Positions 25,558 through 39,581 of a stretch of DNA of 64,000 bases are shown one piece after another. A program made the position numbers and the translations under genes. Numbering within the stretch: position 1 is the stretch's first letter; every line of letters starts with the position of its first letter. The stretch is taken from contig CAWJUA010000013.1 of NCBI GenBank assembly GCA_963845925.1, positions 33,507 through 97,506 on the forward strand, given 5' to 3'. The notes under the pieces were generated by a model. It was given only the letters and a program-made list of their open reading frames with translations, did no database searches and was not told where the DNA came from. This DNA is from an uncultured Chloroflexia bacterium. Its GTDB lineage: Bacteria > Chloroflexota > Limnocylindria > Limnocylindrales > CSP1-4.

Positions 25558-31102
<5,545 letters not shown>

Positions 31103-31208
31103 GGCTTCTCCCCTGCTTCGACCGTGGAACCGGCACCCTCAGTCATCGAGCCGGCGTTCGCTCTCCGAGGTCGGAGGCTGAGCTCCGCGAAGCCATCCGC
31201 CCGAGGAT

Positions 31209-31871
31209 TCATCGCTTGACCGCCTCCTCGATGGATGACGAGCCGCGCGACATGACGACGGCTCCGGTTCGCACCAGCTCCTTGATCCCGTAGCCCCGGA
31301 CGAGCCCGACGAATGTGTCGACGTCGGCCTCCGGCCCGGTCACCTCGGCGACGATCGACTCGTCGGCGACGTCGAGGACCCGCCCCTTCGAGAGCTCGAC
31401 GAGCTTGAGGACCTCGCCTCGCGTCGACTCGGTCGCCCGGATCTTCACGAGCGCCAGCTCCTGGCCGATCGTCGCCTCGGACGTGACGTCCTGGACCTTG
31501 AGGACGTCGATCAGCCGGTAGAGCTGCTTCGCCGCCTGCTCGACCGCGACGTCGTCGCCATGGAGCGTGATCGTCATCCGGCTGACGTCGGGCTGGTCGG
31601 TCCGGCTGACCGCGAGCGAGTCGATGTTGAAGTTGCGGGCTCGCATCAGCGACGACACCCGGTTCAGGACGCCCGGCTTGTCGAGGACGATCGCGATCAG
31701 CGTGTGACGACGCGTCTCGCCGCCACCCGGCAGCGCTCGCGGCGGCGGGTTGACGTGGCCCGTGTGGGCGGGCGGTGTGATGCCGGGGACGGCACCGGAT
31801 GCGGCGCTGGGAGAGGCGCCGGCTCCGGTGCCGCCCGGCACCCTGCCATTCGAACTCGGGTCGGACGTCAC
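31209..31871 (-). CDS. ilvN: Acetolactate synthase small subunit
   Basis: DKPGVLNRV, NIDSL, QLYRLIDV, ELALVK and ELVRTG; GTG 31871 is coupled to the ilvB stop. Confidence 0.93.
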   Translation of the reverse strand: MTSDPSSNGRVPGGTGAGASPSAASGAVPGITPPAHTGHVNPPPRALPGGGETRRHTLIAIVLDKPGVLNRVSSLMRARNFNIDSLAVSRTDQPDVSRMTITLHGDDVAVEQAAKQLYRLIDVLKVQDVTSEATIGQELALVKIRATESTRGEVLKLVELSKGRVLDVADESIVAEVTGPEADVDTFVGLVRGYGIKELVRTGAVVMSRGSSSIEEAVKR

Positions 31872-33745
31872 TCGTCCGCCCCGTCCCACTTCTCGATCAG
31901 GTCGGACAGGCCCTTGCCGGCCGGCATCATCGGGAAGATGTTCTGTTCCTCGGCGATCTCGAACCAGATGAGCGCCGGGCCGTCGACCGCCTGGGCGGCC
32001 CGGATCGCATCGTCGACCTCATCGGGCGCCGTGGCCCGGAACGCCGGGATGCCGTACGCGTCGGCCAGCTTGGCGAAGTCCGGGCCGGGCAGATGGGCGG
32101 AGTGATAGTTCCCGCCGTAGATGATCTCCTGCCACTGCCGGATCATCCCGAGCTTCTTGTTGTCGAGCAGGGCGATCTTCACCGGGATCCGGTCGGCCAC
32201 CAGGGTCATCAGCTCCTGCGACGTCATCTGGAAGCCGCCGTCGCCGGTGATCGCCCACGTCTCGCGGTCGGGCCGGCCGAGGGCCGCGCCCATCGCCGCC
32301 GGGACGCTGAAGCCCATCGTGCCGAGGCCGCCGGAGCTGACGTGCGAGTTCGGCTGGCGGAAGCCGGCGTAGCGGGCGAGCCACATCTGGTTCTGGCCGA
32401 CGTCGGCGACGTACGTGGCCGCGTGGTCCGTCAGCTCGCCGATCCGGCTGACGACGTAGTCGGCCGAGAGGAGGCCGTCCCGCCACGCCCCCGAGCCGTG
32501 CCACGACGAGCCCTCGGACTCGCGCCGCCACTCGGCGAGCTCCGCGAAGTAGTCGGCCCGGGTCGCCGGCTCGACGGCCGCGACCATCGGCGTCAGCGCC
32601 CGCAGGACGCGGCCAGCGTCGCCGACGATCGGGACCTCGACCGCGACGTTCTTGCCGATCTCCGCGGGGTCGATGTCGACGTGGACGATCCGGGCGTACG
32701 GGGCGTACGTCCGGACGTTGCCGGTGACCCGGTCGTCGAAGCGCATCCCGATCGCGAACAGCAGGTCGGCCGACTGGATCGCCCGGTTGACGTGCTTCCA
32801 GCCGTGCATCCCCATGAAGCCGTAGCTCAGCGGGTGGGTCTCGTCGATGACGCCGACACCGAGCAGCGTGTGGGCGACCGGGATCTGGGTCTTCTCGGCG
32901 AACGCGACGAGGTCGTCCCAGGCCTCGGCGTGGAGGACGCCGTGGCCGGCGAGAATCACGGGCCGCTTCGCGTTCGCGATCTCGGCGGCGGCGAGCTTGA
33001 GCTGGCGGCCGTTCGGCTCGACGTTCGGGCGGAAGCCCGGCAGGCCCGCGATGACCTCATCCTCGGTCGGGTGGCCGGCGGTCGTCTCCTGCTGGAGGGC
33101 ATCCTTCGTGATGTCGATGTGGACCGGGCCGGGCCGGCCGGATCGGGCGATGTGGAACGCCTCGGCGATGACCCGCGGCAGCTCGTCGGCGTCGCGGACG
33201 AGGTAGTTGTGCTTCGTCATCGGCAGCGTGATGCCGTTGATGTCGATCTCCTGGAACGCGTCCTTGCCGATGAGCGCGCCCGGGACGTTGCCGGTGATCG
33301 CGACGATCGGGACCGAGTCGAGGAGGGCGGTGCCGATGCCGGTGACGAGGTTCGTGGCGCCCGGGCCGGACGTCCCCATACAGACGCCGACGCGGCCGGT
33401 GACGCGGGCGTAGCCGTCGGCGGCGTGGGCGCCGCCCTGCTCGTGGCGGACGAGGATGTGGCGCAGCTCGGGGTAGTCGCCGAGGACGTCGTAAAGCGGC
33501 AGGATCACGCCGCCGGGGTAGCTGAAGAAGACGTCGACGCCCTGGTGGAGGAGCGCCTCGCAGACGACGTCGGCGCCGATGCGCGTCCGCCGCCGCGGCC
33601 GCGAGTCGTCGAGCATCGACTTGCGGGCCTGTTCGACGGCCGCCGCGCTCGAGGTGCCGTCGCTGGGGACATGGCTCCGGCGCGCGTCAGGGCTCGGCGC
33701 CGTCGGACTCGGCGGCTTCGCCGATGGACCCTTCGTCATCGTCAT
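31868..33745 (-). CDS. ilvB: Acetolactate synthase large subunit
   Basis: YPGG, RHEQG, TSGPGATN, RFDDRV, TPP motif GDGGF..N and MIRQWQ. Confidence 0.96.
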   Translation of the reverse strand: MTMTKGPSAKPPSPTAPSPDARRSHVPSDGTSSAAAVEQARKSMLDDSRPRRRTRIGADVVCEALLHQGVDVFFSYPGGVILPLYDVLGDYPELRHILVRHEQGGAHAADGYARVTGRVGVCMGTSGPGATNLVTGIGTALLDSVPIVAITGNVPGALIGKDAFQEIDINGITLPMTKHNYLVRDADELPRVIAEAFHIARSGRPGPVHIDITKDALQQETTAGHPTEDEVIAGLPGFRPNVEPNGRQLKLAAAEIANAKRPVILAGHGVLHAEAWDDLVAFAEKTQIPVAHTLLGVGVIDETHPLSYGFMGMHGWKHVNRAIQSADLLFAIGMRFDDRVTGNVRTYAPYARIVHVDIDPAEIGKNVAVEVPIVGDAGRVLRALTPMVAAVEPATRADYFAELAEWRRESEGSSWHGSGAWRDGLLSADYVVSRIGELTDHAATYVADVGQNQMWLARYAGFRQPNSHVSSGGLGTMGFSVPAAMGAALGRPDRETWAITGDGGFQMTSQELMTLVADRIPVKIALLDNKKLGMIRQWQEIIYGGNYHSAHLPGPDFAKLADAYGIPAFRATAPDEVDDAIRAAQAVDGPALIWFEIAEEQNIFPMMPAGKGLSDLIEKWDGADE

Positions 33746-33770
33746 CGCAGTCTCCCGATCCCGCTTCAAG

Positions 33771-33802
33771 CAAACAAAAAACCCTCGCCACCCGGCGAGG
33801 GT
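33771..33802 (-). terminator. Attenuator terminator of the ilv-leu operon
   Basis: Minus strand ACCCTCGCC-GGGT-GGCGAGGGT followed by TTTTTGTTTG, just upstream of ilvB. Confidence 0.88.
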
Positions 33803-33828
33803 CCCTTCGGTCTTCGGTGGTGCGGCGC

Positions 33829-34032
33829 CTAGCGTCCGTTCCTCCGAGGTCCTCCGTTCTCCCGCCGGGAGCCGGTAATAAGCCCGAGAAGGCTGTCCAG
33901 CCCAAGAAGGAGCGAGCGAAGAATCCCGATGAGCGACGCGTCGTCGAGGCCGGAGTCCATTGGCACGGTCAGGCGGCGGCCGTCGGCCGTCACGACGACG
34001 GCAACATGGCGGCGATCACGGCCGTTGAACAT
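33829..34032 (-). CDS. ilv-leu attenuator leader peptide (start at 34032 or 33960)
   Basis: MFNGRDRRHVAVVVT...MDSGLDDASLIGILRSLLLGLDSLLGLITG...; Leu/Ile run using CTT and ATT codons; stop lies just before the terminator. Confidence 0.75.
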   Translation of the reverse strand: MFNGRDRRHVAVVVTADGRRLTVPMDSGLDDASLIGILRSLLLGLDSLLGLITGSRRENGGPRRNGR

Positions 34033-34190
34033 GCCCAACATTCTCTCCCACTGACGCCTATGGCCGGTCTCCCGGTCACGTGAGCGGCAGTCTACGAGGC
34101 CGCGCACGATCGCGCAACCTGCCGGACCCTACCGGACGCCACCGTGTGTCCACCACTGGTCACGTGCGCGGCCTGCTGCCTTCGCCGCGG

Positions 34191-34228
34191 AAACGCATGA
34201 GACCGCCGGTTGCCCGGCGGTCTCATGC
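34191..34228 (-). terminator. Terminator hairpin after the two small peptide genes
   Basis: Perfect 15-bp stem (34195-34209 / 34214-34228), GCAA loop on the minus strand, then GTTT. Confidence 0.8.
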
Positions 34229-34252
34229 CTGTCTGGATCCAGATGGACCCAA

Positions 34253-34354
34253 TTACTTCCAGCGCTGACCGGCCTCGATGACGTAAGCCGAGCTTGCGAG
34301 CGCCGAGAGGACGAGGAGGACCCGGAAGGCCTGAGCCTTGAACATGCGGGTCAT
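34253..34354 (-). CDS. Small peptide 2 (33 aa) MTRMFKAQAFRVLLVLSALASSAYVIEAGQRWK
   Basis: Translated by hand; starts 4 nt after the peptide 1 stop; shares LAS.A....AG.RW. with peptide 1. Confidence 0.75.
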   Translation of the reverse strand: MTRMFKAQAFRVLLVLSALASSAYVIEAGQRWK

Positions 34355-34358
34355 CGCG

Positions 34359-34448
34359 TCAGTCCCAGCGCATCCCAGCGCCGACGGTGAGGGCCATTGA
34401 TGCCAGGAGCATCACTGCCCACGTGAAGCGAGCCAGGTACTTCTTCAC
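34359..34448 (-). CDS. Small peptide 1 (29 aa) MKKYLARFTWAVMLLASMALTVGAGMRWD
   Basis: AAGGAG RBS before GTG 34448; basic N-terminus, hydrophobic core and AG-x-RW tail. Confidence 0.8.
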   Translation of the reverse strand: MKKYLARFTWAVMLLASMALTVGAGMRWD

Positions 34449-34483
34449 GATGTGACTCCTTCGAGTCTGCCTGACGTCGTTCC

Positions 34484-34564
34484 CTCGGCGGCCGGGCGGT
34501 CTTCCGTGACGGGAAGATCCCTGGCTTTGCGTCCCCGTCTCACGACGGGTTTGCCCTGGACGAG
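34484..34564 (-). ncRNA. c-di-GMP-I (GEMM) riboswitch aptamer
   Basis: Minus strand CTCGTCCAGGGCAAACCCGTCGTGAGACGGGGACGCAAAGCCAGGGATCTTCCCGTCACGGAAGACCGCCCGGCCGCCGAG: GGGCAAACC, GNRA loop (GTGA), GGACGCAAAGCC, terminal CCGA and CTCG/CGAG P1. Confidence 0.9.
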
Positions 34565-34668
34565 CTCGCGGCGGAGGAGGTAGTCCTCGTCGTGAACGTT
34601 GCGAGTACGGCTGCCGATCCACTATGGGCCATCGGTACCAGTCGGACACGACTTGCGAGTCAGTGCGT

Positions 34669-35226
34669 TCAGTCATCACCCGTCGGGCCGACCACGCCGG
34701 AGCGCGCGCCGCGACGCATCGTCGTGACGATCACGACCACGACGCCGATCGCCAGGATCGCGTCCCCGACGCTGAAGATGTTGTTGAACGGCAGCCACGT
34801 CGGCAGCGCGAAGATGTCGGTCAGCGGCTCCAGCATCGGATGGGCCAGCACGGCACTGTTTGAGTAGATCACGGGGTCTGCCCTGCCGAGTGCGGCCATC
34901 GCGCCGGGCGATGCCGGCATGAAGCCGCCGTTGGCGAGGATCGCGGCGAGGTTGCAGGCGGCCCCGAGCGCGACCAGCGGGATGCCGGGCACGTCGAGGT
35001 TTCGAAGCACGGCGATCACGACCATGAGCGTGCTCCCGACGTACAGGATCGGCCCGAGGCTACCCACCCGCTCCGCGATCGCGTCCTGGAAGAGGACGAC
35101 CTGCACGAGAAAGCCGGCGAACACGAGCGGCCACCAGCGGAACTTGATCTCGCCGAGGCGGGATGGCCTGCCGCCCAGCAGCAGGCCGATGACCAGGCCG
35201 ATCGCGACGGCGTAGAGGATGAACAT
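34669..35226 (-). CDS. DUF5317-like membrane protein
   Basis: Hydrophobic protein with GG..RL, N..AI.ANGG.MP, L.DIF and FSVGD motifs; GGAG RBS. Confidence 0.8.
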   Translation of the reverse strand: MFILYAVAIGLVIGLLLGGRPSRLGEIKFRWWPLVFAGFLVQVVLFQDAIAERVGSLGPILYVGSTLMVVIAVLRNLDVPGIPLVALGAACNLAAILANGGFMPASPGAMAALGRADPVIYSNSAVLAHPMLEPLTDIFALPTWLPFNNIFSVGDAILAIGVVVVIVTTMRRGARSGVVGPTGDD

Positions 35227-35248
35227 CAACTGCTCCGGGACGAGGCGC

Positions 35249-37918
35249 TCAGGCGCTGCGAAGCTTGACCCGCCGCCGGGTCAGCGCCGCCGGCTCGACG
35301 GGTGGCTCGGCCCCTGAGGCTGCGGGCAGCGGGCCAAACGTCTTCGCGGTGAATGTTGCACCGTCGACCGGCCTGGCGAACAGGTATCCCTGGCCGAACT
35401 CGCAGCCCATCTCCCGCAGCCGATCGAGCTGCCCGGCATCCTCGACGCCCTCGGCGACGATCCGCAGGCCGAGCGTCCGGCCGAGGGCGACGATCGAGTG
35501 GGCGAACGCCCAATCGTCGCTCCCGCCGTCGGCGGCGCCGATGAACTCGCGGGCGATCTTGAGGATGTCGACCTGGAACCGGCGAAGGTAGCCCAGCGAG
35601 GAGTAGCCGGTTCCGAAGTCGTCGATCGCGATCCGGATGCCGAGCTGTCGCAGGGCCTGGAGGCGCGCGATCGTCGTATGCGTGTCGTGGAACATCGCCG
35701 TCTCGGTGAGCTCGAGCACCAGCGAGGTCGCCGGGAAGCCGGTCTCGTCGAGGATCCGCCCGATGTCGTCGACGAAGTCCGCGTCCTGGAGCTGGGCGGC
35801 CGACAGGTTGATCGTCAGGACGAGCGGCTCCGGCCGAGGCCATTGCCGCTGCCAGGTGGCCACCTCGCGGCACGCCTCCAGCAGCACCCAGCGGCCGAGG
35901 CCGAGGATCGCCCCGCTCTCTTCGGCGAGGCGGATGAACTCGTCTGGACCGACGATGCCGCGGGTGGGGTGCCGCCAGCGGACGAGCGCCTCGACGCCGT
36001 ACAGTCCGCCGGTCGCGAGGCCGATGATCGGCTGGTAGTACACGGCCAGCTCCCCGCGGACGATGCCGCGGGTCAGCTCGGACGAGAGCGCGTGCCGTTC
36101 GATGATCGCCGCATGCATCGTCGGCTCGAAGACGGCGTACTGGCTCTTGCCCAGGGCTTTGGCCCGGTACATCGCCACGTCCGCGTTGCGGAGCAGGTCG
36201 TCGGCCCGCTCGCGTGGGTCACGCGCGGCGGCGAGCCCGATGCTCGCGCTGATCGAGACCTCCTGGCCCTCGATCGGGAGCGGGACCTTCAGTGCCTCGA
36301 GGAGACGCTGGCACACCGACAGGGACCGGCTCAGATCGGGGACGTCGTCCAGCAGGATGGCGAACTCGTCGCCCCCGAGGCGGGCCGCGACGTCGCCGGC
36401 CCGGACGCAGCTCCGGACGCGGTCGGCAACCGCGACGAGCAGATGGTCGCCGGCGACGTGGCCCATGCTGTCGTTCACGACCTTGAAGTCGTCGAGGTCG
36501 ACGAAGAGGACCACCGGCAGCAGGTCCGGCGTGGGCAGCACGAGGCGCGCGTTGACCTGCTCGGTGAAGAGGTTCCGGTTGCCGAGGCCGGTGAGCGGGT
36601 CGTGGTAGGCCTGGTGGCGCAGCTCCTCCTTGAGCCGCGACAGCTCGGCAAGCGACTGTTCCAGCTGGCCGTTCTCGAGCGCGGTGGCGGCCTGGTTGGC
36701 GAGCGTCTCGAGGAGCCGTAGATCCTCGTCGGTAAACGACGTGGCTTCGGTCAAGCGGTTGGCGATCTGGATCGAGCCGATCGTGCCGGCTTCTCCGCGG
36801 AGTGGCGCCATCATCGCCTGACGGACGCCGTCCGCATGCGGGTCGCCGACTGCGGGAACGTGAAAGAACGCGTGCGGCTCCGACTCGACTCGCATGCGGA
36901 TCGGGTCGTCCGGCGCGAGCCTGACCGGCACCATCGTGGTCGGCGGCTCGGCCTCGGCGGTCCGCGTGAGCAACGCGTCGCCCTCGGCCGAGCGTGGGTA
37001 AAGCACGACCTCTGCCCGTTCAGCGCGGAACATGGTTCGGGCGTGTTCAAGCAACGCCACGATCGCCGAATCCAGCTCGGGCGAGTGCTGCAGGATGCGG
37101 CCGGACTGATAGAGGAACTCGAGACGCTGGCCCTTCTCGCGCTCGGAGAGGTAGGCGCGGTAGGCGAGGAAGACCGTGCCGAGCGGAACGACGAGGAGCC
37201 AGAGCAGGCGGGGCTCGACCCACAGGATCGAGACCGCCAGCAGCGCCAGGCTCGTATTCGCGACAGCCACGAGCGTGCCGAACTGGATCATCTCCGGCAG
37301 CTTCTGGAACTGCGGGGCGCCACCGGACAGCGAGATCGCGGTGGCGATGGCAAAGGCGCTGACGACGGTCGCTGCGAGCGTTCCGGCGAACGCCGCGAGC
37401 CAGTCGCCGCTCGTCGGCTGGCCGGCCGGCGAAGCGAGGAGGTGGAAGACCGTCAGGGACACCGCGGCCGAGATCGCGAAATTGCTGAGGTTGAAGGCGA
37501 ACTTCAACGGAGGCTGGCGGAAGTAGATCAGGGCCGAGCCAGACCCGAGCAGCATTGCCAGGAGGTACTGGTCCGGCGACAGCAGGAAGAGACCGAGAAC
37601 GGCCGGGAACTCGCTCAGGGAGAAGGAGTGCTTCTCCCTCCGGAAATGGACGTCGACGACCTTGAGCTCGGCGAGGAAGAAGCCGATCGCGAGGACGGGC
37701 CAGGGAATGTTGAAGGGCTGGGCCGGCGCCGGCAGTCCCCGGAGCTGCGTCAGGTAGAGCAGCAGGGCGCATGTCGCGATCCCCGCGCTGAAGCTCCAGA
37801 CCCGCACCGTCACCGGGATCGCCGCGAGGGCACGCCGAATCGGGACGCCGGCGGCGGCGACCGGCCAGTTGCGCGAACCGGTTGGCTCGACCCGTTGGGT
37901 TTTGACCCCTCGGGACAT
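35249..37918 (-). CDS. Membrane diguanylate cyclase/phosphodiesterase (multi-TM, GAF, GGDEF, EAL)
   Basis: GGAGG RBS and ATG 37918; about 6-7 hydrophobic segments; GAF (FTDEDLRLLETLANQ); DLDDFK, RAGD I-site, GGDEF, EAL, DDFGTGYSS, AEGVE and QGY. Confidence 0.93.
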   Translation of the reverse strand: MSRGVKTQRVEPTGSRNWPVAAAGVPIRRALAAIPVTVRVWSFSAGIATCALLLYLTQLRGLPAPAQPFNIPWPVLAIGFFLAELKVVDVHFRREKHSFSLSEFPAVLGLFLLSPDQYLLAMLLGSGSALIYFRQPPLKFAFNLSNFAISAAVSLTVFHLLASPAGQPTSGDWLAAFAGTLAATVVSAFAIATAISLSGGAPQFQKLPEMIQFGTLVAVANTSLALLAVSILWVEPRLLWLLVVPLGTVFLAYRAYLSEREKGQRLEFLYQSGRILQHSPELDSAIVALLEHARTMFRAERAEVVLYPRSAEGDALLTRTAEAEPPTTMVPVRLAPDDPIRMRVESEPHAFFHVPAVGDPHADGVRQAMMAPLRGEAGTIGSIQIANRLTEATSFTDEDLRLLETLANQAATALENGQLEQSLAELSRLKEELRHQAYHDPLTGLGNRNLFTEQVNARLVLPTPDLLPVVLFVDLDDFKVVNDSMGHVAGDHLLVAVADRVRSCVRAGDVAARLGGDEFAILLDDVPDLSRSLSVCQRLLEALKVPLPIEGQEVSISASIGLAAARDPRERADDLLRNADVAMYRAKALGKSQYAVFEPTMHAAIIERHALSSELTRGIVRGELAVYYQPIIGLATGGLYGVEALVRWRHPTRGIVGPDEFIRLAEESGAILGLGRWVLLEACREVATWQRQWPRPEPLVLTINLSAAQLQDADFVDDIGRILDETGFPATSLVLELTETAMFHDTHTTIARLQALRQLGIRIAIDDFGTGYSSLGYLRRFQVDILKIAREFIGAADGGSDDWAFAHSIVALGRTLGLRIVAEGVEDAGQLDRLREMGCEFGQGYLFARPVDGATFTAKTFGPLPAASGAEPPVEPAALTRRRVKLRSA

Positions 37919-38141
37919 CAGACCTCCAGAGTTTCGTCTCCGTCCGGGCATTCTGTGGCCGCTTCGGCACATCTGGCCGTTGAACGAAGGTACGGGTCGG
38001 GGCATGACGAAGGTCACCGGACCGCATTCCTCCTGACCAATCCGCACACCGGATATCGCGGATGGGGATCGGACGACGTCGGGATGAACGCGCCCCTGTG
38101 CTAGCCTGAAAGGCCCCATTTCACGCAGGTTTCGAGTCGTC

Positions 38142-39581
38142 ATGAGCCAGCCGCGAACGATCGTCGAGAAGATCTGGGACGACCACGTCGTCGTCCAGGA
38201 GCCGGGTGCCCCGGCGGTCCTCGCGGTCGACCTCCACCTCGTCCACGAGGTCACGTCGCCGCAGGCGTTCTCGGGGCTTCGCGCCCGCGGCCTGCGGGTC
38301 CGCCATCCGGACCGGACCGTCGCCACCGCGGATCACTCGACGCCGACCCACTCGCGCTCCCTGCCAATGGCCGACCCGATGGCGGCGGCCCAGGTCGACC
38401 AGCTGACGCGCAACTGCGAGGAGTTCGGCGTCCCGCTCCATGGCCTCGGCTCGCCGAGCCAGGGGATCGTCCACGTCATCGGCCCCCAGCTGGGCCTGAC
38501 CCAGCCCGGGATGACGATCGTCTGCGGCGACTCCCACACCGCGACCCATGGCGCGTTCGGGGCGCTCGCGTTCGGGATCGGGACGAGCGAGGTCGAGATG
38601 GTCCTCGCGACGCAGACGCTGCTCCAGCGCCAGCCGAAGACCTACGAGGTCCGCGTCGACGGCCGTCTCTCGCCCGGCGTCAGCGCGAAGGACATCATCC
38701 TCGCCCTGATCGCCCGGATCGGGATCGGCGGCGGGACCGGCCACGTGTTCGAGTACACCGGCGACGCGATCCGCGCCCTGACGATGGAACAGCGGATGAC
38801 GATCTGCAACATGAGCATCGAGGGCGGCGCGCGGGCCGGCCTGATCGCCCCGGACGACACGACGTTCGACTACGTTCACGGCCGGGCGCATGCCCCGCAG
38901 GGCGCAGCCTGGGATGCCGCCGTGGAGCGCTGGCGTTCGCTCCCCACCGACGAGGGCGCGAGCTACGACCGGTCGATCACGATCGACGCCGCCGCCCTCG
39001 AGCCGATGGTCACGTACGGCACGAACCCGGGCATGGGCATCCCGATCACGTCGCTCGTCCCGTCGCCTGATGCCCAGCCCGATCCGTCCGCCCGCCGGGC
39101 CCTCGAGCGGGCCCTCGAGTACATGGACCTCCTTCCCGGCCAGCCGATCCTCGGCCAGAAGGTCGACGTGGTCTTCGTCGGCTCGTGCACGAACGGCCGG
39201 ATCAGCGACCTGCGGCTCGCGGCGTCGGTGCTGAAGGACCGCAAGGTCGCCGACGGCGTCCGGGTGATGATCGTCCCGGGCTCCGACGAGGTGAAGCGCG
39301 AGGCCGAGCGCGAGGGACTCCACGAGGTCTTCCGGGCGGCCGGCGCCGAGTGGCGCGAGTCGGGCTGCTCGATGTGCATCGCGATGAACGGCGACCAGCT
39401 GGCGCCCGGCCAGTACGCGATCTCGACGTCGAATCGCAACTTCGAGGGCCGCCAGGGCAAGGGCGGCCGGACGTTCCTCGCCTCGCCGCTGACCGCCGCC
39501 GCGTCGGCGATCGCGGGCGTCGTCGCCGACCCGCGCAGGCTCGCCGGGATCGAGGCGATCGCCCCGGTCGGTGGGCGGTAG
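38142..39581 (+). CDS. leuC: 3-isopropylmalate dehydratase large subunit
   Basis: [24 protein letters not shown] and [12 protein letters not shown]. Confidence 0.97.

Follow-up and report, generated by a model that had tools for sequence, protein, structure and literature searches.

We describe here a small unit on the minus strand of a 64,000-nucleotide stretch of DNA (hereafter the window) from an uncultured Chloroflexia bacterium (GTDB lineage Bacteria; Chloroflexota; Limnocylindria; Limnocylindrales; CSP1-4), positions 33,507 to 97,506 of contig CAWJUA010000013.1 in assembly GCA_963845925.1. It consists of a class-I cyclic di-GMP (c-di-GMP) riboswitch aptamer (c-di-GMP-I, or GEMM-I) followed by two micropeptide genes, pep1 and pep2, and it lies next to the gene of a membrane protein of the family DUF5317. 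The explanation that we favour, to which as a whole we give a probability of roughly 0.8, is that the aptamer belongs to an independent unit and would exert translational control over the two micropeptides, which would work in partnership with DUF5317. The aptamer itself is ordinary. What is new is the micropeptide pair, which is conserved across the class Limnocylindria and undescribed in print; no paper on this module in Chloroflexota was found in the literature searched. The cargo is thus a micropeptide family that gene callers rarely annotate, in Chloroflexota that are abundant in soil, and it may represent an undescribed output of c-di-GMP.

The aptamer and its cargo

The whole 64-kb window was searched with cmscan against Rfam 15, and the only match at gathering score was at 34483-34564 on the minus strand. 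Two models pass at this site, RF03167 (c-di-GMP-I-GGC; 67.2 bits for a cut-off of 59, with E = 1e-13 and all model positions, 1-80, spanned) and RF01051 (c-di-GMP-I; 61.6 bits for a cut-off of 35, i.e., 27 bits above it). An earlier note on this DNA, made from the letters alone, had predicted a c-di-GMP-I riboswitch at 34484-34564 and proposed the Rfam c-di-GMP-I model as the check. The match was obtained, although the note had not anticipated the GGC variant as the model with the top score, and the predicted coordinates were off by one base and otherwise right. The hallmarks that the note had read on the minus strand are all present in the sequence, namely AGGGCAAACC, a GNRA-capped P2 (the loop is a GUGA tetraloop in the sequence and in the model alignment), GGACGCAAAGCC and CCGA near the 3' end, together with the CUCG/CGAG P1 helix, in which 34561-34564 are paired with 34484-34487.

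The aptamer opens a self-contained unit of ca. 370 nucleotides (nt), formed by the aptamer, a 35-nt linker, pep1, pep2 and a hairpin (Table 1). That the two micropeptide genes are the cargo, as had been proposed, is borne out by the layout: they start 35 nt downstream on the same strand, with no intrinsic terminator in between and a strong hairpin behind them, and the same order is found in other genomes. In the window's family, an aptamer detected with Rfam was directly upstream in 20/20 peptide loci (20 of the 30 loci obtained with the peptide profile), and in a second family in 19/19 loci (the better-scoring matches, among 29 genomes with a match). The total is 39 of 39 peptide loci tested outside the window's genome, in two families of the class. 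In terms of genomes, the RF03167 model matched 35 of the 36 others in the window's genus and none of the 24 in a sister family, which are genomes of ca. 1 Mb (this tally includes one unpublished genome, G010, on which nothing else here depends).

Both pep1 and pep2 are real genes under purifying selection. The test used rows of common length from the window's genus, 17 pep1 and 10 pep2 orthologues, leaving out the hybrid loci L025 and L026 (see below) from both sets and the pep2 of L027 and L030, which have another length. Third codon positions varied at 22 of 27 codons in pep1 and 24 of 32 in pep2, and second positions at only 8 and 10, with a ratio of non-synonymous to synonymous variation (pN/pS) of 0.39 and 0.34, respectively. 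The two are paralogues and have in common invariant K, R, A, AG and RW positions. The GTG start of pep1 is preceded by AAGGAG, and pep2 starts 4 nt after the pep1 stop; in relatives this distance is 1-11 nt or the genes overlap, a spacing that fits translational coupling, so that pep2 is probably coupled to pep1.

We searched 401 genomes sampled across the class with a pep1/pep2 profile and found matches in 90 of them, distributed over 30 of the 65 genera. By family, the matches were 58/137, 29/153, 2/92 (weak), 0/16 and 0/2. From its sequence, pep1 is predicted to be a single-pass membrane peptide. The hydrophobic core of pep2 has been lost in the second family and in part of the genera of the first, where only the C-terminal (V/L)-x-x-AG-H-RW tail remains, and because the tail is retained there, we consider it to be the conserved functional element. 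The peptides belong to no family in Pfam or NCBIfam, and in the ESM Atlas only unnamed clusters of peptides of 31-33 amino acids (aa) resemble them, with 52, 434 and 152 members. Processing by signal peptidase was considered and judged unlikely by eye, with E at position -3 of pep2 and many pep2 devoid of a hydrophobic core.

Five loci from members of the genus (L025, L026, L039, L045, and L050) have a single hybrid peptide instead, whose N-terminus (MKTNLAFF) is like that of pep1 and whose body resembles pep2, as if the genes had undergone fusion or recombination. Codons 5-10 of pep2 (34326-34339), which code for K-A-Q-A-F, can form the hairpin AAGGC-UCAG-GCCUU, and GAAGGC/GCCUUC is present in most relatives. 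The third positions of these codons hardly vary among the 10 orthologues, and remnants persist where pep2 is degenerate; this may be an RNA element inside the coding region. The window's genome also has a third peptide gene, outside the window (L085, G000:C13 ca. 125020-125123, plus strand), coding for 32 aa with the tail AGRRWC. No aptamer and no DUF5317 gene lie within 700 nt of it, and it is accompanied by its own terminator-like hairpin and by the same upstream blocks as the unit described here.

The fold of the aptamer was examined on an alignment of 67 distinct peptide-linked aptamers from related genomes. Its three helices are more than chance. Over 24 pairs, 92.2% of the cells have standard pairs, compared with 29-47% when the partners are slid, and changes on both sides were found at 8 pairs (89 cells), giving a covariation score that was matched by none of 500 shuffles. 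The P1 pair 2-102, for instance, is CG in 34, UA in 21, UG in 7, and AU in 1. Besides, the junction GUCCAGGGC is common to 22 of 22 peptide-linked aptamers, whereas an A-rich junction is seen in the 11 aptamers of this locus set whose cargo is different, and by this sequence difference the peptide-linked copies are a distinct subtype.

Table 1. Features of the riboswitch-micropeptide unit and its upstream neighbours (window coordinates).
Feature	Position	Strand	Basis
15-bp GC-rich hairpin with GCAA loop, then GUUUCC; likely terminator of the unit	34195..34228	-	fold, comparison
pep2, ATG start, 33 aa, paralogue of pep1, without own Shine-Dalgarno	34253..34354	-	open reading frame (ORF); pN/pS
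pep1, GTG start, 29 aa, basic N-terminus, one hydrophobic helix, C-terminal GAG-x-RW	34359..34448	-	ORF; pN/pS; 90/401 class genomes
Linker, candidate expression platform; Shine-Dalgarno AAGGAG (34456-34461) in hairpin GACUC/GAGUC (34463-34467 with 34454-34458)	34449..34482	-	sequence; minimum-energy fold
c-di-GMP-I (GEMM-I) riboswitch aptamer, 82 nt, P1, P2 with GUGA loop, P3	34483..34564	-	RF03167 67.2 / RF01051 61.6 bits; covariation, 67 relatives
C, putative equivalent of Vc2 C92, just 5' of the P1 3' strand	34488	-	alignment; invariant 67/67
A, putative equivalent of Vc2 A47; column is G in RF03167 consensus	34528	-	consensus comparison; invariant 67/67
G, putative equivalent of Vc2 G20 (ligand contact)	34555	-	Rfam model alignment; invariant 67/67
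Small conserved hairpin GAGGA/UCCUC, ca. 10 nt upstream of P1	34574..34588	-	alignment of 20 genus leaders, by eye
Conserved upstream blocks, candidate promoter or operator	34619..34666	-	alignment of genus leaders
DUF5317 membrane protein, 186 aa, conserved upstream partner	34669..35229	-	Pfam PF17248, 91.2 bits, cut-off 25, profile 1-151 of 151
Membrane GAF-GGDEF-EAL protein (longest ORF, start uncertain)	35249..38326	-	Pfam EAL 250.8, GGDEF 145.7, GAF_3 41.6 bits

The tie to DUF5317

The earlier note had placed the peptides right behind a c-di-GMP enzyme. The gene immediately upstream is that of DUF5317, and the GAF-GGDEF-EAL protein, in whose translation the GGDEF, RxxD and EAL motifs can be read, is the next one. 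With tblastn, DUF5317 was matched in 67 of the 79 stored loci, including all 19 from the second family. The remaining 12 (L007-L012, L015, L031, L035, L056, L064, and L085), where it was not matched, are mostly those of aptamers not linked to peptides; among them, L056 is short and stops at the end of its contig, L064 is matched by GGDEF-EAL instead, and L085 holds the third peptide copy of the window's genome. GGDEF-EAL was matched in 39 of the 79, a count in which the second-family loci, with flanks of only ca. 700 nt, are too short to show this enzyme.

We also looked from the opposite side, with a sample of 80 loci anchored on DUF5317, in which we searched for aptamers by means of a covariance model derived from the 67 sequences and for peptides by means of the profile. 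Nearly all of these records are titled Chloroflexota or Chloroflexi, uncultured Chloroflexia, Anaerolineaceae or Anaerolinea, or Candidatus Limnocylindrales, and three titles name other phyla. The aptamer was found in 52 loci, the peptide in 59, and both in 50. Only two had an aptamer without the peptide, one being cut by the end of the locus and the other having its aptamer within ca. 30 nt of the end. On the other hand, nine had a peptide after DUF5317 and no aptamer, some of them second DUF5317 paralogues in genomes whose other copy does have the aptamer. From these pairs without an aptamer it follows that, as far as gene order in the sample goes, the association of the peptide with DUF5317 is broader than that with the riboswitch. 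This evolutionary tie, usually with a membrane GGDEF-EAL protein in addition, makes it most likely that the peptides act in the membrane together with DUF5317.

As to what DUF5317 is, no paper mentioning it was found in the literature searched. Close homologues were found in a Chloroflexota bacterium (82-83% identity) and in a Candidatus Limnocylindrales bacterium (69%), which agrees with an uncultured member of Limnocylindria living in soil as the most likely source of the window. The protein has two invariant aspartates, in TDIFALP and FSxGD, which might point to a GxGD-type intramembrane aspartyl protease. A sequence search of the PDB gave no match up to an E of 10. The quality of the AlphaFold model was moderate (predicted local distance difference test, pLDDT, 71.3); Foldseek found no match to it at E 0.001 or better and the best hit with VIA-align (Z 7.5) was to generic helical segments, so that no fold was assigned by any of these searches. 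For the N-terminal membrane part of the GGDEF-EAL protein, there was a weak, sub-threshold match to MASE9 (PF20972; 16.7 bits compared with 24.3, E = 0.0072, profile 82-176 of 203). In the available part of the preprint describing it, MASE9 is proposed by its authors to bind a ligand within the membrane (bioRxiv 10.1101/2021.11.05.467447).

How the peptides might be controlled

In the mechanism that we favour, the aptamer and its own upstream region would make up a small independent transcription unit with pep1 and pep2 as its only products. Binding of c-di-GMP to the aptamer would change the efficiency with which ribosomes start on pep1, and initiation at pep1, together with coupling, would set the level of both peptides, which would then act in the membrane with DUF5317. 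Control would thus be exerted at translation and not at termination. The ORF has no terminator ahead of it, and its start codon follows the aptamer at a short, conserved distance; for these reasons translation initiation is probably the step that is controlled. As to the sign, we lean slightly toward repression by c-di-GMP, i.e., an off switch, given the anti-Shine-Dalgarno segments outside the aptamer, which are typical of off switches, and the precedent from Clostridioides difficile, which is also an off switch.

Several observations weigh against this reading. The best-scoring Rfam model is the GGC variant and not c-di-GMP-I. In P3, the window's aptamer has two non-standard pairs in the cmscan alignment, and among the 67 relatives the standard pair is missing in 12 at columns 39-97 (an A.C) and in 60 at columns 47-88. 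No switching helix was supported by the folding and accessibility tests: the whole leader is marginally better than its shuffles (z -1.72, 14/200 as good), the Shine-Dalgarno core is not buried more deeply than in flank-shuffled sequences (0.42 compared with 0.40, with values below the shuffled mean in 26 of 67), and forcing P1 barely moves the accessibility of the Shine-Dalgarno (0.42 to 0.40). Lastly, the contigs from RNA libraries described below can neither prove transcription nor show the ends of a transcript, as DNA may be present.

When P1 was forced, the accessibility of codons 2-6 rose slightly, from 0.42 to 0.46, with an increase in 23, a decrease in 4 and no change in 41 of 68. Hairpins burying the Shine-Dalgarno were no commoner than in the flank-shuffled controls. 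RNAalifold, applied to 20 leaders of the genus, paired CCAGG of the junction with CCUGG in codons 4-6 of pep1, and we have not relied on this pairing, both sides being invariant and CCUGG recurring in GC-rich frames. For the second family it paired the Shine-Dalgarno AGGUGA with UCACCU in codons 8-10, a pairing that is also invariant.

The closing hairpin at 34195-34228 is very stable (-47.2 kcal/mol, z -6.88, with 0/200 shuffles as stable), and a comparable hairpin closes the unit in relatives, with a stem sequence that differs between genera. A simple terminator scan did not call it (it is followed by <5 T), and simple consensus scans of 33800-35400 found neither a sigma-70-like promoter nor a canonical terminator. 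Several relatives have two aptamer-peptide cassettes in tandem, ca. 500-620 nt apart (L019, L022, L048, L052, L053, L063, L099, and L120), and in the genus loci L019 and L022 each cassette is followed by its own hairpin.

At the other end of the unit, the conserved blocks GCACUGAC ... UGGUACCGAUGGCCCAUAGUGG precede the peptide genes with or without a riboswitch. They fit neither the sigma-70 consensus in the scan nor, by eye, the spacing of a sigma-54 promoter, and they are candidates for a promoter or operator shared by a regulon of peptides. Their pattern (GCA[C/A]CU.., ca. 20 nt, GGUACC..AUGG.C.AU) is also seen in L085, L098, L107, L133, L140, L154, L161, and L163. Judged by eye, the small hairpin at 34574-34588 is preserved through compensating changes in the majority of the 20 leaders from the genus; it was not called by RNAalifold. 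The upstream flank might take part in switching. The 5' arm of this hairpin (GGAC, often GGACG) is complementary to CGUCC, which spans the 5' strand of P1 and the junction, a complementarity that is not universal.

The stretch 34256-34625 is represented, with 0-2 mismatches, among contigs assembled from RNA libraries of soil and rhizosphere: X1 at 34260-34355 and 34326-34497 (0 mismatches), X2 at 34408-34540 (0) and X4 at 34409-34625 (2). The tables of X2 and X3 are near-identical and perhaps come from one data set filed twice. No contig covered 34188-34255 or 34630-34900, the latter in the coding region of DUF5317, a gap that in itself proves nothing. Taken together, the contigs hint weakly at separate transcription of the unit, beginning at 34625 or farther upstream.

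Other roles and other ligands

An alternative that we regard as improbable, and that nevertheless fares better than the ones that follow, is that the aptamer is an element of the 3' untranslated region (3'-UTR) that alters the stability or termination of the DUF5317/GGDEF-EAL mRNA, the micro-ORFs being secondary. The aptamer does start only 105 nt past the DUF5317 stop, on the same strand, the consensus scan found no sigma-70-like promoter in the gap, and there is a precedent in Vc2, which controls the stability of an upstream small RNA according to the part of the preprint available (bioRxiv 10.1101/617340). However, the peptides are under purifying selection and follow the aptamer in every one of the 39 loci tested. 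Also against this role, the upstream blocks recur before peptide genes that have no riboswitch and, in the window's own genome, before one that has no DUF5317, which fits a promoter specific for the peptides, and the RNA-library contigs cover the aptamer and the peptides and not the DUF5317 coding region, although this is a weak hint. A 3'-UTR role and the control of the peptides that we favour could also coexist.

The second alternative concerns the class of the aptamer. If it belonged to c-di-GMP-I-GGC (RF03167), its altered core might bind a ligand other than c-di-GMP. RF03167 has the top score and wins the Rfam clan competition, here and for most relatives. The two consensus sequences differ in a single upper-case core column, GACGCAAAgCc in RF01051 and GACGCGAAgCc in RF03167 (consensus GACGCGAA), and the G in this column is presumably what defines the variant, to judge from its name. 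The window has A there (34528), as do 67 of 67 relatives, so that of the two marks of RF03167 the score is found and the G is not. Its higher score may come from an overall likeness to the seed sequences of that model, the stem sequences being alike, and RF01051 also passes by a wide margin.

Mapped through the columns of the model, 34555, 34528 and 34488 would be the equivalents of G20, A47 and C92 of Vc2, the residues that contact c-di-GMP (PMC4744006, in the part available). Three features of RF01051 are found together, namely the score, the compensated P1/P2/P3 architecture and the equivalents of G20, A47 and C92. With this canonical G/A/C core invariant in 67/67, we file the sequence as an ordinary c-di-GMP-I aptamer and not as the GGC variant in spite of the scores, we infer c-di-GMP to be its ligand, and we see little chance that the GGC reading is right. 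The accessible portion of one review (PMC5473149) has nothing specific on the variant. In practical terms, Rfam clan competition gives the name of the GGC variant to RNAs with a canonical core, and this column should be checked in automated annotations of Chloroflexota.

Another possibility, and a very improbable one, is that the micro-ORFs are leader peptides whose translation controls read-through of a hairpin into a small ORF and ilvBNC. A strong hairpin does follow pep2, Leu, Val and Ile are abundant in the peptides, and the genus of the window has ilvB and a conserved ORF of 68 aa downstream (28 and 29 of the 79 stored loci, respectively). On the contrary side, the synteny with ilvB is confined to part of one family (as far as the ca. 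700-nt flanks of the second family allow this to be judged), whereas the peptides are found in two; conservation in them falls on the AG-x-RW tail rather than on the branched-chain runs; pep2 is not hydrophobic in many genera; tandem cassettes have a hairpin each; and no alternative anti-terminator pairing was seen.

As for the ligand, variants that sense cyclic AMP-GMP (c-AMP-GMP) presumably carry an A at the equivalent of G20, which was also the premise of the earlier note when it assigned the aptamer to the G20 type, and the G found at 34555 and in all 67 aligned relatives agrees with that assignment. Such c-AMP-GMP variants do exist (PMC7266159, in the part available), and they share one fold with the c-di-GMP type, which covariance models cannot separate, but the invariant G and the presence of a GGDEF-EAL enzyme within the same locus make it most improbable that this riboswitch senses 3',3'-cyclic GMP-AMP (3',3'-cGAMP; GEMM-Ib).

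Relation to known systems

Compared with the well-known members of RF01051 (e.g., Vc2 and Vc1 of Vibrio cholerae), the aptamer described here has the same three helices, the GNRA-capped P2 and the same G/A/C core, and likewise it lies within a 5' leader, on the same strand as its cargo, in a class found beside c-di-GMP enzymes. It differs in the P1-P2 junction, which is GUCCAGG instead of the usual A-rich stretch, in the peptide-linked copies only, and in a cargo that consists of two micropeptides and nothing else. RF03167 is its best covariance model, and it is set apart from that family by the A, here and in all relatives, in the variant column (the G after GACGC).

The only comparable case in print is the CD1980.2 family of C. 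difficile. According to the parts of the 2026 report that were available (PMC13724677), these are membrane-associated proteins of 58 aa behind class-I c-di-GMP riboswitches, where c-di-GMP represses by premature termination; some paralogues have no riboswitch, and the authors state that there are no homologues outside C. difficile. The parallel, within what that text describes, is a class-I c-di-GMP riboswitch whose sole cargo is a small, multicopy, membrane-associated family with some paralogues free of the riboswitch. However, C. difficile belongs to another phylum, and by description the peptides are distinct, with 29-33 aa and an AG-x-RW tail here and 58 aa there. There is premature termination in CD1980.2 and no terminator before the ORF in our unit, which also differs in having no link with sporulation and in being tied to DUF5317. 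A second, seemingly unrelated family in a distant phylum suggests that microproteins gated by riboswitches may recur as an output of c-di-GMP.

The peptides also recall small single-pass membrane modulators such as the actinobacterial SafA, which goes with a sortase (PMC9282373, in the part available), in their size, single hydrophobic helix, short conserved motif and linkage to a larger membrane protein. This is a likeness by description and not by sequence, and, unlike the partner in that system, DUF5317 has no known function. The unit offers a first testable lead to the function of DUF5317, and possibly to that of the membrane sensor domain in the GGDEF-EAL protein next to it.

The earlier note had gone further and proposed feedback on the c-di-GMP enzyme, a possibility raised by the gene neighbourhood. 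More specifically, the peptides could be a c-di-GMP-gated layer, with levels set by the riboswitch, that inserts in the membrane and is bound or processed by DUF5317 through AG-x-RW, tuning c-di-GMP by way of DUF5317 or of the membrane sensor domain of the enzyme. We put this forward as a tentative idea that is more probably wrong than right. If true, it would be a loop from RNA to peptide to enzyme, of a kind not described for any riboswitch.

Other aptamers and flanking genes

The window's genome has two more c-di-GMP-I aptamers, both outside the window, at G000:C13:23166-23254 (plus strand, L001) and G000:C11:2209-2284 (minus strand, L003). They score 67.5 and 55.8 bits, and each precedes a larger protein with an N-terminal hydrophobic segment, likely a surface or secreted protein. 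The 68-aa ORF (starting MLGMFNGRDRRHVAVVV...) is on the minus strand at 33829-34035, between the peptide unit and ilvB, and belongs to no Pfam or NCBIfam family. By reading of the translations, branched-chain amino-acid genes flank the c-di-GMP island (27252-33769 and 38142-39581), with ilvB, ilvN, ilvC and a leuA/leuB-like frame on one side and leuC on the other.

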